Shown one piece after another: positions 2,875 to 7,469 of a stretch of DNA of 8,265 nucleotides. The translations under genes were made by a program, and so were the position numbers. Below the pieces are notes generated by a model, which worked only from the letters and a program-made list of their open reading frames with translations, was not told the DNA's origin and made no database searches. Source of the DNA: a virus (taxonomy: Duplodnaviria; Heunggongvirae; Uroviricota; Caudoviricetes); the IMG/VR virus record IMGVR_UViG_2690316348_000005, one strand, 5' to 3'. How positions within the stretch are numbered: the stretch's first letter is position 1; the number at the start of each line of letters is the position of its first letter.

Positions 2875-3255
2875 ATGACCGAGCGCATAGAATTTGTTTT
2901 ACCTTACCCGCCGACGGTGAACACTTACTGGCGTCGTCGTGGCAGCACATATTTTGTATCAAAAGCCGGGGAGCGTTATCGCCGGGCAGTGGCGCTTATT
3001 GTTCGCCAGCAGCGGCTGAAATTAAGCCTGTCCGGAAGGTTGGCAATAAAAATTATTGCAGAACCACCGGATAAGCGCCGCCGTGACCTGGACAATATTC
3101 TGAAAGCGCCGCTGGATGCGCTGACGCATGCGGGGTTGCTAATGGACGATGAGCAGTTTGATGAAATCAATATCGTTCGTGCTCAGCCAGTATCTGGTGG
3201 ACGTCTGGGGGTGAAGATTTATCCCATAATGCTTGAAGGGCAGGTCAAAAAATGA
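2875..3255 (+). CDS. rusA: RusA-family Holliday junction resolvase, 126 aa
   Basis: Translation carries the RusA-like core ...PPDKRRRDLDNILKAPLDALTHAGLLMDDEQ... with conserved acidic residues, and the size matches RusA. Sits directly upstream of the Q-like gene, as in lambdoid nin regions. Confidence 0.88.
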   Translation: MTERIEFVLPYPPTVNTYWRRRGSTYFVSKAGERYRRAVALIVRQQRLKLSLSGRLAIKIIAEPPDKRRRDLDNILKAPLDALTHAGLLMDDEQFDEINIVRAQPVSGGRLGVKIYPIMLEGQVKK

Positions 3256-4073
3256 AACTGGAAGATTTACCGAAATACTACTCCCCAAAATCCCCCGGCC
3301 TGACTGATGCATCGGCCTCAACGTCGAAAGATGCGCTGAGTATCACTGATGTGATGGCCGCGCAGGGCATGACACAGAATCGGGCTGAGATGGGGGTTTC
3401 TGCGTTCCTTGGGAAAATGGGCATTAGTATGAATGACAGAGAGCGGGCAACAGAATTGCTGACAGAATATGCACTCAGTCGGTGTGATCGCGTGGCGGCG
3501 TTAAGAAAACTCCCGGCAGAAATAAAACCGGCAGTGATGCGTATTATGGCTTCGTATGCGTTTGAAGATTATGCCCGTAGCGCGGCGAGCAAAAAACAGT
3601 GCCCCTGCTGTCACGGAAAAAAATTTATTGAAAGCGAGGTTTTTACAAACAAGATCCAGTATCCGGATGGTAAGCCGCCGGTATGGGCAAAGTGTACGAA
3701 AGGTGTGTATCCGTCTTACTGGGAAGAATGGAAAAAAGTCAGGGAGGTGGTAAAAGTTGCCTGTCCGGAGTGTGGCGGAAAGGGTGAGGTTTCCACCGCC
3801 TGTAAGGATTGCCGTGGGCGTGGTGTCGCCATTCATCGTGAAGAGTCGGTAAAACGTGGTATGCCTGTTATCAGAGACTGCCAGCGTTGTGGTGGTCGTG
3901 GCTATGAAAGACTACCATCAACGGAGGCATTTAATGCTATATGCGAGGTGACAAACCAGATAACACGCGCGTCATGGGAAAAAACAGTTAAGAAATTTTA
4001 TGATGCGCTGGTGACCCGGTTTGATATTGAAGAAGCATGGGCTGAGCGGCAGTTAAAAAAGGTAACTAGGTAA
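3252..4073 (+). CDS. Putative late-gene antiterminator Q-like protein with four CxxCxGxG zinc-finger repeats, 273 aa
   Basis: ATG overlaps the rusA stop (ATGA). Contains CPCCHGKK, CPECGGKG, CKDCRGRG and CQRCGGRG repeats. Lies immediately upstream of a pR'-like promoter whose initial transcribed sequence is ACGATGGG. The Q assignment is by position and zinc motifs, not by a confirmed homology match. Confidence 0.6.
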   Translation: MKLEDLPKYYSPKSPGLTDASASTSKDALSITDVMAAQGMTQNRAEMGVSAFLGKMGISMNDRERATELLTEYALSRCDRVAALRKLPAEIKPAVMRIMASYAFEDYARSAASKKQCPCCHGKKFIESEVFTNKIQYPDGKPPVWAKCTKGVYPSYWEEWKKVREVVKVACPECGGKGEVSTACKDCRGRGVAIHREESVKRGMPVIRDCQRCGGRGYERLPSTEAFNAICEVTNQITRASWEKTVKKFYDALVTRFDIEEAWAERQLKKVTR

Positions 4074-4078
4074 CAAGG

Positions 4079-4114
4079 TTGATTTTTCCGGAATCTGTGG
4101 TAAATTCGTTATAA
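4079..4114 (+). promoter_or_regulatory. pR'-like late promoter with a likely qut region
   Basis: -35 TTGATT (4079..4084), 16-bp spacer, -10 TAAATT (4101..4106), then ACGATGGG. This closely resembles the lambda pR' -10 and initial transcribed sequence as I recall it. Confidence 0.6.
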
Positions 4115-4154
4115 CGATGGGCGTTTTATGCCTGACGTTAGAAGAGTTTCTACA

Positions 4155-4178
4155 ACCCGCCGCCGAGCGGGTTTTTTA
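4155..4178 (+). terminator. tR'-like intrinsic terminator, about 65 nt downstream of the putative late transcription start
   Basis: Stem CCCGC (4156..4160), loop CGCCGA, stem GCGGG (4167..4171), then TTTTTT (4172..4177). Confidence 0.65.
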
Positions 4179-4297
4179 TGACTGAAATCGCGTCAGTACA
4201 GTAAACGCGCTGGTGGCGGTGAATACCTGTCTTTCAGCTTGCTGGCTTTTTCGACAAGAGTTATTGGTGTGTCACGTTAACCGGAAAAGGAAAAGAC

Positions 4298-4495
4298 ATG
4301 CTAAAACAGCAGGATATGACAGAAACCGCCAGAGTGGTGTTTAATGAATTAAGCGTTACCGAACCGGCGACAGTCGGGGAGATAGCGCAGAATACTTACC
4401 TTTCACGCGAACGCTGCCAGTTAATACTGACCCAGCTGGTTATGGCGGGTCTGGCAGACTATCAGTTCGGTTGTTACAGACGCCTTCCGCAGTGA
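4298..4495 (+). CDS. Small putative winged-helix DNA-binding protein, 65 aa
   Basis: ATG at 4298 with an AAGGAAAAG ribosome-binding site upstream. The segment TVGEIAQNTYLSRERCQLILTQLVMAGL has a helix-turn-helix-like pattern. No specific family recognised. Confidence 0.45.
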   Translation: MLKQQDMTETARVVFNELSVTEPATVGEIAQNTYLSRERCQLILTQLVMAGLADYQFGCYRRLPQ

Positions 4496-4524
4496 AGGCT
4501 TTTTTATTTGTGGTAAATGGGCGG

Positions 4525-4645: not shown

Positions 4646-5704
4646 ATGCTTAATACTGTAAAAATATCCAGTTGTGAGTTAATCAACGCCGACTGCCTGG
4701 AATTTATCCGGTCGTTACCCGAAAATTCTGTTGACCTGATAGTCACGGACCCGCCGTACTTTAAAGTGAAGCCTGAGGGCTGGGATAACCAGTGGAAGGG
4801 CGACGATGATTACCTGAAGTGGCTGGACCAGTGTCTGGCGCAGTTCTGGCGGGTGCTGAAACCTGCCGGAAGTCTTTACCTGTTCTGTGGTCATCGCCTG
4901 GCATCTGATATCGAAATCATGATGCGTGAACGCTTCAGTGTGCTGAACCATATTATCTGGGCGAAGCCGTCCGGACGCTGGAACGGATGCAACAAGGAAA
5001 GCCTGCGGGCGTATTTCCCCGCCACAGAGCGCATTCTGTTCGCGGAACATTATCAGGGGCCGTATCGTCCGAAAGATGCCGGGTATGCGGCGAAGGGCAG
5101 TGCACTGAAACAGCATGTGATGGCCCCGCTGATTTCTTACTTTCGTGATGCGCGAGCTGCCCTGGGGATAACGGCAAAACAGATTGCAGATGCCACAGGA
5201 AAGAAAAACATGGTGTCGCACTGGTTCAGTGCCGGTCAGTGGCAGTTGCCGAATGAAAGCGATTATCTGAAATTACAGGCGCTGTTTGCCCGGGTGGCAG
5301 AAGAGAAGCATCGGCGTGGTGAACTGGAAAAGCTCCACCACCAGCTGGTGGATACGTATACCTCACTGAACCGGCAGTATGCGGAGCTGCTGAGTGAATA
5401 TAAACATCTGCGGCGGTATTTTGGCGTGACGGTGCAGGTGCCGTATACCGATGTGTGGACGCATAAACCGGTGCAGTTCTATCCCGGGAAACATCCGTGC
5501 GAAAAACCGGCAGAAATGCTGCAGCAGATAATCAGCGCTAGCAGTCGTCCGGGTGACCTGATTGCAGATTTTTTCATGGGGTTGGGTTCGACAGTGAAAG
5601 CGGCACTGGCGCTCGGGCGTCGTGCAATTGGCGTTGAGCTGGAGACTGAACGTTTTGAGCAGACGGTTCGGGAAGTACAGGATTTAGTCAGCCAGAACGG
5701 ATGA
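4646..5704 (+). CDS. Orphan beta-class DNA methyltransferase (N6-adenine/N4-cytosine family, probably N6-adenine), 352 aa
   Basis: Catalytic motif IV DPPY (LIVTDPPYF) lies N-terminal to the SAM-binding motif I FxGxG (DLIADFFMGLGST), which is the beta-class order. No adjacent restriction endonuclease candidate is visible. Confidence 0.88.
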   Translation: MLNTVKISSCELINADCLEFIRSLPENSVDLIVTDPPYFKVKPEGWDNQWKGDDDYLKWLDQCLAQFWRVLKPAGSLYLFCGHRLASDIEIMMRERFSVLNHIIWAKPSGRWNGCNKESLRAYFPATERILFAEHYQGPYRPKDAGYAAKGSALKQHVMAPLISYFRDARAALGITAKQIADATGKKNMVSHWFSAGQWQLPNESDYLKLQALFARVAEEKHRRGELEKLHHQLVDTYTSLNRQYAELLSEYKHLRRYFGVTVQVPYTDVWTHKPVQFYPGKHPCEKPAEMLQQIISASSRPGDLIADFFMGLGSTVKAALALGRRAIGVELETERFEQTVREVQDLVSQNG

Positions 5705-5744
5705 TATTGAAGAATTAATTACGCGTCGTTATTATGCGGCTCCC

Positions 5745-5820
5745 GGCCCTTTAGCTCAGTGGTGAGAGCGAGCGACTCATAATCGCCAGGTCGCTGGTTC
5801 AAATCCAGCAAGGGCCACCA
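5745..5820 (+). tRNA. ileZ: tRNA-Ile2-like, anticodon CAT (presumed lysidine-modified, reads AUA)
   Basis: Manual cloverleaf: 7-bp acceptor GGCCCTT/AAGGGCC, D-arm with GG, anticodon loop CTCATAA, T-loop TTCAAAT, encoded CCA. Overall resemblance to E. coli ileX. The Ile-versus-Met call rests on that resemblance. Confidence 0.8.
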
Positions 5821-5827
5821 TCACATA

Positions 5828-5904
5828 CCGCCATTAGCTCATCAGGAAAGAGCGCCAGCCTTCGAAGCTGGCTGCGCGGGGTTCAAGTCCCCGATGGCGG
5901 TCCA
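5828..5904 (+). tRNA. argN: tRNA-Arg, anticodon TCG
   Basis: Manual cloverleaf: acceptor CCGCCAT/ATGGCGG (C1-G72), anticodon stem CCAGC/GCTGG, loop CTTCGAA, T-loop TTCAAGT, encoded CCA. The gene symbol is by position in a 933W-like ileZ-argN-argO cluster and is tentative. Confidence 0.75.
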
Positions 5905-5917
5905 TTATCTGCATCAT

Positions 5918-5994
5918 GCGTTGTTAGCTCAGCCGGACAGAGCAATTGCCTTCTAAGCAATCGGTCACTGGTTCGAATCCAGTACAGCGCGCCA
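5918..5994 (+). tRNA. argO: tRNA-Arg, anticodon TCT (reads AGA)
   Basis: Manual cloverleaf: acceptor GCGTTGT/ACAGCGC with a U4-G69 wobble, anticodon stem ATTGC/GCAAT, loop CTTCTAA, T-loop TTCGAAT, encoded CCA. The gene symbol is by position and is tentative. Confidence 0.8.
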
Positions 5995-6128
5995 TATTCA
6001 TTCTTCCAGATTCCTTCCGGCAGAGCCTTATACTGAAATATACCTGGCTCAGGATATTGTTGAAAATATTTTATGTTTGTCAAAAATAAAAGTTCTGTTA
6101 AGTATTGATTGAGTGTTTGTTATACGGT

Positions 6129-6458
6129 CTAATGGTTTTTTCAGCATTAAATATTTATCATTCATATGGTGTGGGTAGAGTGAATATTGATGAGGCGTCG
6201 GGGTGTTTCATCCTTAGGCAGCGTATTGATATAGTCAATGCAGCACGAGCAAAGGCCTTCAGCCGTTTGACAGTTTTGTTCTGTACTCCTGATCGTCTTT
6301 CGGGAAGAGACGTTATTATTCTGAATAGTGATGCTATACAGAGGGTTTGCGATGAGTTCATGGTTGCTAATTCAGAATTATTTGCTCTTGTTCAGGAGTA
6401 CAACAGAATAGCCAGGACCTGTGGTATGGATGAACTTCGGATTACTCATCTGGGGTAG
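6129..6458 (+). CDS. Hypothetical protein (about 109 aa from ATG 6129; 117 aa from TTG 6105) in the segment inserted after the first tRNA cluster
   Basis: ORF beginning in an AT-rich stretch with a candidate promoter TTGATT (6105..6110), 17-bp spacer, TCTAAT. No clear Shine-Dalgarno and no recognised family. Confidence 0.3.
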   Translation, partial: LMVFSALNIYHSYGVGRVNIDEASGCFILRQRIDIVNAARAKAFSRLTVLFCTPDRLSGRDVIILNSDAIQRVCDEFMVANSELFALVQEYNRIARTCGMDELRITHLG

Positions 6459-6650
6459 ATACATATCTGGATTATCACCTGTTACGGTAAAAAGTGATTG
6501 CTTACTGTTTTTGTGAATGGCATTGCAGCAGCCGGATAATGTCAGTGCTGGCTGACGGTGTGCTGGTGGCGGGTGTGGTGGTTGTTGCTTTCCCGTTGCT
6601 GAAAAAGAAAACGCCAGACTGTTAGCCGGGTATCAGTTAGCGGGAGAAAT

Positions 6651-6855
6651 TTTTAAATACTTCACAATTCAGGCGGTTGACTGTTGTCTGGTTTGCGGGG
6701 AGTTTGTTAAAAGAAACTGGCATGGTGAATCCCCCTGTGCGGAGGGGCAATCAGCGAGTAGGTATATGGGATAATCGCGGATTCAGGTGCTGGTACTGAA
6801 TTCACCGGGAGGCACCCGGCACCATGCAATGGCACATAGCGCCACTCTCCAGCCC
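6651..6855 (+). repeat. Direct repeat B, copy 1 (about 205 bp), GC-rich and structured; truncated just before the terminator that ends copy 2
   Basis: Matches 7215..7419, identical over the last ~165 bp with about 6 mismatches in the first ~40 bp. Contains hairpins such as CCCCCTGTGCGGAGGGG. Confidence 0.85.
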
Positions 6856-6928
6856 AAAGTACAGGATTTAGTCAGCCAGAACGGATGATATTGAAGAATT
6901 AATTACGCGTCGTTATTATGCGGCTCCC

Positions 6929-7004
6929 GGCCCTTTAGCTCAGTGGTGAGAGCGAGCGACTCATAATCGCCAGGTCGCTGGTTCAAATCCAGCAAGGGCC
7001 ACCA
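6929..7004 (+). tRNA. ileZ: tRNA-Ile2-like, anticodon CAT, second copy
   Basis: Identical to 5745..5820. Confidence 0.8.
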
Positions 7005-7011
7005 TCACATA

Positions 7012-7088
7012 CCGCCATTAGCTCATCAGGAAAGAGCGCCAGCCTTCGAAGCTGGCTGCGCGGGGTTCAAGTCCCCGATGGCGGTCCA
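7012..7088 (+). tRNA. argN: tRNA-Arg, anticodon TCG, second copy
   Basis: Identical to 5828..5904. Confidence 0.75.
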
Positions 7089-7101
7089 TTATCTGCATCA
7101 T

Positions 7102-7178
7102 GCGTTGTTAGCTCAGCCGGACAGAGCAATTGCCTTCTAAGCAATCGGTCACTGGTTCGAATCCAGTACAACGCGCCA
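7102..7178 (+). tRNA. argO: tRNA-Arg, anticodon TCT, second copy with a Watson-Crick U4-A69 pair
   Basis: Identical to 5918..5994 except G69 to A (position 7171), which converts the U4-G69 wobble into U-A. Confidence 0.8.
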
Positions 7179-7192
7179 CACTTATTTTCCCT

Positions 7193-7218
7193 GGCTCGCT
7201 TTTGCGGGCCTTTTTTTT
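7193..7218 (+). terminator. Intrinsic terminator immediately after the second tRNA cluster
   Basis: Stem GGCTCGC / GCGGGCC (one G-U pair), loop TTTT, followed by TTTTTTTT (7211..7218). There is no equivalent after the first tRNA cluster. Confidence 0.7.
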
Positions 7219-7419
7219 AAATGTCTCACAATTCAGACGGTTGACAGTTGTCTGTTTTGCGGGGAGTTTGTTAAAAGAAACTGGCATGGTGAATCCCCCT
7301 GTGCGGAGGGGCAATCAGCGAGTAGGTATATGGGATAATCGCGGATTCAGGTGCTGGTACTGAATTCACCGGGAGGCACCCGGCACCATGCAATGGCACA
7401 TAGCGCCACTCTCCAGCCC
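7215..7419 (+). repeat. Direct repeat B, copy 2 (about 205 bp)
   Basis: See copy 1. This copy begins with a perfect TTGACA (7242..7247) and is followed by a terminator. Confidence 0.85.
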
Positions 7420-7440
7420 CTCTCCGGAGGGGCTGTTTAT
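7415..7440 (+). terminator. Intrinsic terminator at the boundary between repeat B copy 2 and the AT-rich island
   Basis: Stem AGCCCCTC (7415..7422), loop TCCG, stem GAGGGGCT (7427..7434), followed by GTTTATATTGATTTT. Confidence 0.65.
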
Positions 7441-7469
7441 ATTGATTTTGTCAGATGTGAGTAAACTCC

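Follow-up and report, generated by a model that had tools for sequence, protein, structure and literature searches.

In an 8,265-nucleotide (nt) stretch of viral DNA from the IMG/VR record IMGVR_UViG_2690316348_000005 (Caudoviricetes), referred to here in its full length as the window, the segment just downstream of a gene for a Q antiterminator very probably constitutes a late regulatory cassette of the Q-lambda type. As judged from its sequence, it would be served by the upstream Q protein and would comprise a late promoter (pR'), a Q-binding element (QBE), a sigma-dependent pause element and an intrinsic terminator (tR'), together with a 5'-terminal RNA hairpin conserved by compensatory change (Table 1). 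Cassettes of this known, textbook kind are ordinary when taken alone, and the layout in the window comes closest to that of P22 P-late/t-late. Beyond the ordinary switch, moderate interest attaches to the 5' hairpin, to the natural footprint seen in the pause hexamer and to the role of the terminator as a joint between cassettes.

A previous interpretation of the window (hereafter the sequence-only reading) had pointed to the arrangement TTGATT-16-TAAATT, followed by a start region resembling that of lambda pR', and had explained it as a late switch with a pause where Q loads and an intrinsic terminator some 65 nt downstream. The sequence elements of the promoter-like arrangement and start region were confirmed, and their coordinates proved right to within 1-2 nt. 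The lambda promoter reads TTGACT-17-TAAATT-TGACTC-AACGATGGG, and the window agrees with it in the -10 hexamer, the length of the gap (6 nt) and the 9-mer. TAAATT-N7-ACGATGGG is found a single time in the window; with up to two mismatches, 0.10 matches are expected per shuffle, and by our own arithmetic the chance expectation for the exact 14-base match is about 6e-5 (2 x 8265 positions). The terminator sequence was also borne out, with coordinates off by at most 1-2 nt, and spans +42 to +65 when counted from A4113. Lying less than about 100 nt 3' of Q, the putative sigma70 promoter appears to be the conserved positional homologue of pR' in lambda and P22. The interpretation as a late switch is supported by the homology of Q, by the layout in lambda and P22 and by conservation of the individual elements.

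The protein encoded upstream is, judged by its sequence, a true Q-lambda homologue. Lambda Q likewise matches PF03589, and the two proteins are 32% identical from the first to the last residue (BLASTP 4e-41), with an insertion of about 66 amino acids (aa) in the zinc-ribbon arm of the window protein. Its only relatives in the PDB are the lambda Q structures 7UBM, 4MO1 and 7UBJ, and it falls into PHROG 127 ('anti-termination protein Q-like'). A Pfam search yielded no match of the window protein to the Q21 (PF06530) or Q82 (PF06323) families, from which the Q-lambda family PF03589 is distinct (PMC9388147). A DnaJ-like zinc domain (PF00684) scored 30.1 bits and thus fell below the cut-off of 32.7 bits. 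The difference in length to lambda Q (273 versus 207 aa) resides in the arm that contacts DNA and sigma, where two additional CxxC pairs raise the number of these motifs from two in lambda to four. Most members of the family have this long form (250-283 aa, four CxxC), from which lambda and P22, at 207 aa, depart as short exceptions. A structure of a long-arm Q was not found in the PDB.

The likeness to the lambda system (Q/pR'/qut/tR', 6S RNA) thus consists of a PF03589 Q protein, TAAATT, the 6-nt gap and AACGATGGG at +1 to +9. The position of the QBE between -35 and -10 is presumably the same, a constitutive short terminated leader as in lambda would be expected for the window as well, and lambda possesses a 5' stem of its own, AACGA/TCGTT, which ends at +23. 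The lambda transcript starts with the A at 44587, the first A of AACGAT. Differences concern the spacer, which is 16 nt long in the window and 17 nt in lambda and differs in sequence, presumably along with QBE specificity, the extended -10 motif TGn, which is present in the window and absent from lambda, the region upstream of the pause element, occupied by the -35-like TTGACT in lambda and by a variable TCGTTA in the window, and the terminator, which is located at about +194 in lambda. P22 (gene 23/P-late/qut/t-late) resembles the window in its Q-lambda-family antiterminator, its short two-hairpin leader and its 5' stem AACGA/TCGTT. Since the P22-pbi record annotates not only P-late, qut and, 30-58 nt downstream, t-late but also the nucleotide with which the late RNA begins (the first A of AACGAT), A4113 was assigned as +1 of the window by homology. 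P22 differs from the window in that gp23 is of the short 207-aa form, the spacer is lambda-like (TTTTGAATAAAGTTGGG), the pause hexamer is followed by GGA instead of GGG, and the lysis genes lie directly downstream without a methylase/tRNA/cargo module. In phages 21 and 82, pause positions differ from those of the lambda type. The cassettes of these phages are functionally equivalent, consisting of Q, a promoter with QBE, a sigma-dependent pause element and a terminator, but they work with unrelated Q families (PF06530, PF06323) and another QBE architecture (PMC9388147).

Conservation was assessed for 62 close relatives, corresponding to 32 distinct rows to which the column counts given here refer. 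No variable columns were found in the -35 hexamer (0/6), in GGG (0/3) and at positions 4174-4179 (0/6). Three of the 16 spacer columns varied, and so did two of the six -10 columns, solely in rare variants. The discriminator (5/6), the bases between the stop codon and the -35 hexamer (4/5) and the last 93 nt of Q (42/93) varied freely, while 10 of 32 columns were variable in the leader at 4122-4153. Within tR', changes were confined to the loop and to paired stem positions and the T-tract stayed invariant. The pause hexamer occurred as AACGAT, AATGAT, AAAGAT, AACTAT, AACAAT and AATAAT, which means that A1, A2, A5 and T6 are fixed, apart from one rare variant at position 1, and that positions 3 and 4 are free. 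Recognition of a -10 element depends critically on the A in its second and the T in its sixth position. The variation in the hexamer looks like the footprint to be expected of a -10-like element that is read by sigma region 2, and the element-wise conservation as a whole would fit a promoter with Q-binding spacer, a sigma-dependent pause element and a terminator. Positions 3 and 4 (4115-4116 in the window) are polymorphic even among near-identical E. coli prophages found as IMG/VR relatives, while the 3' strand of the 5'-terminal hairpin is unchanged. These variants may tune pause strength, AATAAT being nearer to the -10 consensus, or may reflect drift in cryptic prophages.

The spacer behaves differently from its surroundings over larger distances, too. 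Across loci with Q proteins 54-97% identical to that of the window, it is a near-invariant TTTCC[CG][GT]AA[TA]CTGTG[GT]; this includes loci whose Q is only 54-60% identical, and there the adjacent discriminator is different at every position. Distant relatives carry TTTACT or TTGCAA in place of TTGATT. The lambda QBE is situated between -35 and -10 (PMC4914094; PMC9388147), and conservation of the spacer where the discriminator is not conserved fits a putative Q-binding element at this site in the window. A by-eye alignment of the spacer with the lambda QBE revealed GAAT...TGG in common; as the distance to the -10 hexamer shifts by 2-5 nt among relatives, homologous contacts are not claimed.

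The layout is by no means confined to the window. About 170 loci of the Q-lambda family were drawn from phage records, from GTDB (one genome per species) and from IMG/VR, and most of these show, 25-70 nt past the Q stop codon, a -10-like hexamer that is followed at a distance of about 6 nt by AANNNT and usually GGG. The pR' layout thus recurs after most of the sampled Q-lambda-family genes across Enterobacterales, in many genera. Among 84 distinct leaders, 81 start with AA and 83 have a T at position 6. In 69 of the 84, a terminator-like hairpin ends no more than 80 nt from +1 (median 66), so that a close-by terminator is the norm in the family and lambda, whose pR' leader (6S RNA) is 194 nt long, is the outlier. 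The typical leader is a compact two-hairpin RNA of 53-76 nt. Parts of the window leader (TATGCCTG.ACGTTA.AAGA) reappear alongside Q proteins that share just 38-45% identity.

All over the family, the transcript opens with four or five nucleotides, copied from the pause element, that can pair with a downstream segment whose end lies at +22 to +29, and both sides covary. Nearly all leaders have nucleotide +1 within the helix; in the window, the predicted hairpin has a minimum free energy of -9.3 kcal/mol (z -2.96). Lambda, P22 and the majority of leaders pair as AACGA/TCGTT. Other classes, for which we give our locus designations, are AACGG/CCGTT (L171), AACA/TGTT (ES18, ST104 and others), AACAA/TTGTT (L165, L220), AATGA/TCATT (L150, L160, L174, L178, L198), GATGA/TCATC (L145), AATT/AATT (L093), CATA/TATG (AH07) and AAGAA/TTCTT (L255). 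In an alignment-free test, the reverse complement of each leader's own first 4-mer was sought at +15 to +32, and the 4-mers were permuted among leaders for comparison. The own complement was present in 72 of 84 leaders versus 40.9 +/- 3.1 after permutation (reached in 0/10,000). Leaders that do not begin with AACG had their own complement in 20 of 29 cases, with 2.8 expected, and just four of them retained CGTT. When the leaders were collapsed to 34 sequence clusters, the count was 27/34 versus 12.8 +/- 2.1 (0/20,000). An independent IMG/VR validation set, which was fetched afterwards and anchored by a pairing-blind rule with five anchors corrected by hand, gave 21/34 versus 4.7 +/- 1.9 (0/20,000).

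Covariance models pointed in the same direction. In their alignments, 89-91% of the cells were paired, as compared with 4-46% in slid controls, and changes on both sides were seen for four of the five pairs in 7-11 cells, which was reached by 0-1 of 500 shuffles. These models recovered mainly leaders of the AACG type and missed most of the AACA type, which makes the pair counts from these alignments too low for the compensatory classes; the second search included a few spurious matches on the minus strand. MAFFT applied to leaders of equal length introduced no gaps and left the 3' strand out of register; the permutation test and the covariance models were used instead. Note that the variant pair classes are scattered over the Q tree and that leaders can recombine independently of Q, which renders the number of independent events uncertain. 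Taken together, the sequence data argue that the 5' hairpin is kept by compensatory change across the Q-lambda family. A description of such a 5'-terminal hairpin was not found in the searchable literature, which does not extend to the lambda 6S RNA papers from before 1990, such that priority is not excluded.

We tentatively propose a dual role for the pause element, which we rate as somewhat less likely than not: as DNA it would stall the polymerase for Q loading, and as RNA it would form the 5' strand of a functional, previously undescribed hairpin. The pause element would dictate the 5' sequence, with the 3' strand following suit. By the closest established principle, E. coli RNAs with a base-paired 5' terminus are reportedly spared decay that depends on RppH and RNase E, and the most likely role of the hairpin would be to shield the leader and the late mRNA in this way from decay that depends on the 5' end. 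Possible alternative roles are insulation of the nearby terminator from the G-rich 5' end, action as a stopper once the RNA has been threaded through the Q nozzle (for threading of the nozzle, see PMC9388147) or a function as part of a trans-acting leader RNA. The hairpin cannot affect the pause at +16/+17 itself, because its 3' strand has not yet been transcribed at that point. The Q21-family leaders of Sakai Sp5 (L181, 846-866) and Stx2_14040 (L180, 1473-1493) open with GTGG-N8-CCAC near the published start. Judged from this pattern, 5'-terminal hairpins may be general to Q-dependent leaders beyond the Q-lambda family.

The terminator is of interest for another reason. In mEp460_ev081-like phages, the sequence in common with the window runs from Q to about 4179 and is then followed by tRNA genes. 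A phage of this type (L003) has the same Q, pR' and tR' and then tRNA-Met(CAT) and tRNA-Arg(TCT) (4018-4093 and 4194-4270 in its own numbering), without the 65-aa gene or the methylase. Conversely, Stx2-phage modules of the type 'hypothetical protein - methylase - tRNA - stx2' match the window from about 4154 onward. The hairpin AACCCGCCG...CGGGTTTTTT is preceded by a Q gene of the Q-lambda family in the window and in SfV but by one of the Q21 family in Stx2_14040 and Sakai Sp5, and in the latter two the promoter region before it is unrelated to that of the window. Its positions are 1499-1526 in Stx2_14040 (L180), 868-896 in Sakai Sp5 (L181) and about 1560-1595 in locus L092. Because the same hairpin follows both types of Q gene on a shared module, it would appear to be a recombination joint at which unrelated Q cassettes (Q-lambda, Q21) meet the same cargo module. 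The StxS/pR'-tR' leaders of Stx phages (Sp5, Sp15, 933W type) resemble the window leader in their position right after Q and in representing a constitutive pR' transcript that is ended before the cargo. These cassettes have the hairpin AACCCGCCG...CGGGTTTTTT in common with the window, and some Stx2 phages share the entire 'hypothetical protein - methylase - tRNA' module; they differ in their Q21-family Q (PF06530) and in an unrelated promoter and initial transcribed region. StxS has a length of 258 nt, is processed to 74 nt, binds Hfq (PMC7547250) and ends at a terminator other than the shared hairpin. The Sp5 leader aligns with that of the window only at the hairpin, with nothing found upstream of it, and in Sp5 the hairpin is not identical with the StxS terminator.

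The following sequence of events is envisaged for the window. By homology with lambda and P22, sigma70 RNA polymerase would initiate at A4113 from an extended -10 promoter with weak hexamers. Re-binding of sigma region 2 to AACGAT(GGG) on the non-template strand, at +1 to +9, would then hold the polymerase near +16/+17 (about 4128-4129, a position predicted from lambda). Without Q, slow escape and termination at the hairpin and T-run from +42 to +65 would result in a leader RNA of about 65 nt. Once Q accumulates, it would bind the spacer at 4085-4100 and load onto the paused complex, which should then resist tR' and later terminators (4482-4505 and beyond). Readthrough would allow transcription of the 65-aa gene, the methylase, the tRNA/cargo region and the genes for lysis and structure. 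Once transcribed, the pause element would furnish the 5' strand of the hairpin at 4113-4139 and keep the 5' end of the leader or late mRNA paired.

Several observations weigh against this model. Of the 12 consensus positions, the pR' hexamers match just 8, and a generic promoter scan did not list the site because it requires at least 9; the scan returned 11 matches for the whole window versus 10.5 expected, which is chance level and uninformative for pR'. The case for the promoter therefore rests on homology and conservation and not on consensus strength. The spacer sequence is unlike the lambda QBE, as would presumably be expected of a different Q specificity, and in combination with the Q arm longer by about 66 aa this implies that the geometry of Q loading may differ from lambda. 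The outer stem of the 5' hairpin comprises just 4-5 base pairs (bp). L100 (AAAAAT), L110 (AAAGAT), L155 and the CACAGT and CATCGT classes (Pantoea-like phages) form at most 3 bp and lack a 4-bp complement, and in close E. coli relatives the recent changes at pause-element positions 3 and 4 are uncompensated. In Sakai Sp5, finally, the 3' end of the pR' transcript maps to +258 by dRNA-seq/Term-seq (PMC7547250). By our coordinate conversion, the shared hairpin is located at about +23 to +48 in this phage, closer to the start than in the window, where its distance resembles that in P22, and would thus be read through without Q according to the published Term-seq data, so that efficient termination at tR' in the window is a prediction.

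How do other explanations of the segment compare? If there were no promoter, the hairpin at 4154-4177 would do no more than stop early rightward transcription past Q, and the motifs resembling lambda would be chance or relics. Although the hexamer score below the scan threshold and the chance-level yield of the scan agree with this idea, chance is hard to reconcile with the very low expectation calculated above for the exact 14-base lambda pattern, with retention of the -35, the spacer, the -10, A1, A2, A5, T6, GGG and the T-tract while neighbouring bases vary, and with the same architecture at most sampled Q-lambda-family loci in many genera, including an annotated equivalent in P22. We consider this explanation extremely improbable. 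Even less credence is given to the leader as a translational attenuator, in which a 22-codon open reading frame (ORF) would run from the ATG at 4117 (MGVLCLTLEEFLQPAAERVFYD) through the terminator. The ATG within AACGATGGG is conserved, ORFs from the same ATG are open in SfV and Kpn_R1, and there is a weak Trp_leader match (E 0.84), but the ATG is accounted for by the pause hexamer plus GGG, a Shine-Dalgarno sequence is lacking, and conserved bases change frame between relatives (TTA TGC CTG ACG TTA in the window, T TAT GCC TGT GAC GTT A in FSL SP-016). With an ORF of only two codons in lambda and six in P22 and with differing frames among relatives, the small-ORF reading was rejected.

The remaining two alternatives concern the RNA. 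Something other than a hairpin might make +1 to +5 covary with about +19 to +28, be it a site for a protein, for instance a boxA-like one, or a quasi-palindrome in the DNA that undergoes templated correction. The consensus of boxA is GCTCTTTAACAA, which the context of the 3' strand (GCYYTCGTTTAA, CTTTGTTAA) loosely resembles, and templated mutation can maintain an inverted repeat without selection on the RNA. Yet neither idea predicts that the 3' segment tracks changes in the pause hexamer (C3-G to U3-A, G4-C to A4-U, A1-U to G1-C, A5-U to G5-C, C3-G to G3-C), nor that pairing is followed while the loop drifts in sequence and in length from 10 to 20 nt. Furthermore, we know of no use of NusB/NusE-boxA in Q-dependent antitermination, which counts against a boxA. 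These origins of the covariation are improbable in our view. A somewhat better case, albeit still an unlikely one, can be made for the pR'-tR' RNA of about 65 nt, with its 5' hairpin, small middle hairpin and U-tailed terminator, acting in addition as a trans-acting small RNA in lysogens. As StxS illustrates, prematurely terminated pR' transcripts can be Hfq-bound regulators, and the short late-promoter RNAs of lambda, 21, phi80, 82 and P22 have no assigned function (PMC7547250). The low variability of the leader past the pause element in close relatives as compared with the Q 3' coding end, the recurrence of leader parts with distant Q proteins and the folding of the whole leader at z of about -2.0 to -2.3 would be compatible with such a function. 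On the other hand, the RNA is almost fully base-paired and offers little single-stranded seed, and StxS belongs to the Q21-family cassettes that have only the terminator hairpin in common with the window leader. A permissive search with Rfam covariance models at 4074-4297 yielded no family match; the only return was a spurious Trp_leader (E 0.84), whose 21.8 bits fall short of the gathering threshold of 41. Against this background, the late regulatory cassette of the Q-lambda type is retained as the preferred explanation.

From left to right, the window, a lambdoid prophage segment, contains hok/sok, a DUF968 gene, rusA, Q, the 65-aa gene, a DNA methylase gene, a tRNA triplet in two copies and cargo. 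All genes 3' of pR' are on the plus strand, and the stretch from pR' to the methylase contains two or more terminators, which is consistent with Q-dependent expression of the downstream region. The terminator at 4482-4505 may back up tR'. The sequence-only reading had assigned the winged-helix gene, the methyltransferase, the tRNAs and the cargo collectively to Q-dependent late transcripts. While this holds up overall as consistent with the arrangement, exclusive Q dependence of the tRNAs was too strong a statement. A sigma70-like TTGAAG-17-TATTAT is present 10 nt upstream of each tRNA-Met (5707-5735, 6891-6919), and the tRNAs of Stx phage Sp5 are transcribed from a primary start site mapped between tR' and stx (PMC7547250). 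For these reasons, the tRNAs probably also have a promoter of their own and are not exclusively Q-dependent.

Table 1 Predicted features of the late regulatory cassette and its surroundings in the window.
Feature	Position	Strand	Remarks
Q antiterminator, 273 aa, Q-lambda family	3252-4073	+	Long zinc-ribbon arm, four CxxC motifs; PF03589, E 1.6e-53
Late regulatory cassette (putative pR', QBE, sigma-dependent pause element, tR')	4079-4177	+	Just 3' of the Q gene
-35-like hexamer TTGATT	4079-4084	+	Read from the sequence; starts six bases past the Q stop codon
Promoter spacer TTTCCGGAATCTGTGG, 16 nt, putative QBE	4085-4100	+	Ends in TGG, giving the extended -10 'TGn' at 4098-4100
-10 hexamer TAAATT	4101-4106	+	Same as in lambda pR'
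Discriminator CGTTAT	4107-4112	+	6-nt gap between -10 and AACGATGGG
Predicted +1, first A of AACGAT	4113	+	By homology with the P22-pbi annotation
AACGATGGG, AACGAT (-10-like pause hexamer, +1 to +6) plus GGG (+7 to +9)	4113-4118, 4119-4121	+	Identical to lambda
Predicted 5'-terminal RNA hairpin	4113-4139	+	Outer helix AACG 4113-4116/CGTT 4136-4139; inner helix GGGCGT 4119-4124/ATGCCT 4128-4133
Predicted intrinsic terminator tR', AACCCGC-CGCCGA-GCGGGTT	4154-4173 (stem-loop), 4172-4177 (T-run)	+	-11.2 kcal/mol, z -2.6
Leader of the downstream module	4180-4297	+	Shared with Stx2-phage 'hypothetical protein + methylase' modules; ends in the ribosome-binding site of the 65-aa gene
65-aa gene, predicted first gene of the late transcript	4298-4495	+	Weak winged-helix (TrmB) match PF01978, E 0.0026, below cut-off; PHROG 331 (function unknown), E 1.4e-37
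Second terminator-like hairpin GCCTTCCGCAGTGAAGGC, then T-run TTTTTTATTT	4482-4505	+	Overlaps the stop codon of the 65-aa gene

Some further features of the window deserve mention. The two tRNA sets arise from a 300-nt direct repeat (5673-5972 and 6857-7156, 100% identical, 1184 nt apart) that duplicates tRNA-Met(CAT), tRNA-Arg(TCG) and tRNA-Arg(TCT). Between the sets, a 117-aa ORF (6105-6458) belongs to PHROG 2873, a family of unknown function. A second, 219-nt repeat (6637-6855 and 7201-7419, 95% identical) corresponds to two copies of the Rfam small RNA STnc100 (6691-6842 and 7255-7444). At the left, a hok/sok toxin-antitoxin locus combines sok (Rfam, 913-1088) with the Hok ORF (1026-1238). 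Next to it, an isrK-like Rfam match below threshold (1247-1328; 25.7 versus 50 bits) ends in an intrinsic terminator at 1307-1324. IsrK of Gifsy-1 is an antitermination-linked small RNA (PMC7547250).

For the Q-lambda family, short leaders of about 55-75 nt rather than one of lambda length are the rule, and natural variation supplies a mutational footprint of the sigma-dependent pause element, in which A1, A2, A5, T6 and GGG stay constant and change is concentrated at positions 3 and 4. The covarying hairpin ties the pause element to the RNA and thereby provides a directly testable hypothesis on the stability of the late mRNA or the leader. In the prophage type represented by the window, the cassette is of use for annotation, as it would mark the start of Q-dependent transcription for the methylase, the tRNAs and the cargo. 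In sister phages, stx2AB sits after the tRNAs, and as these phages thus carry stx2 in the same module, the type of Q and pR' would be relevant to levels of toxin expression.

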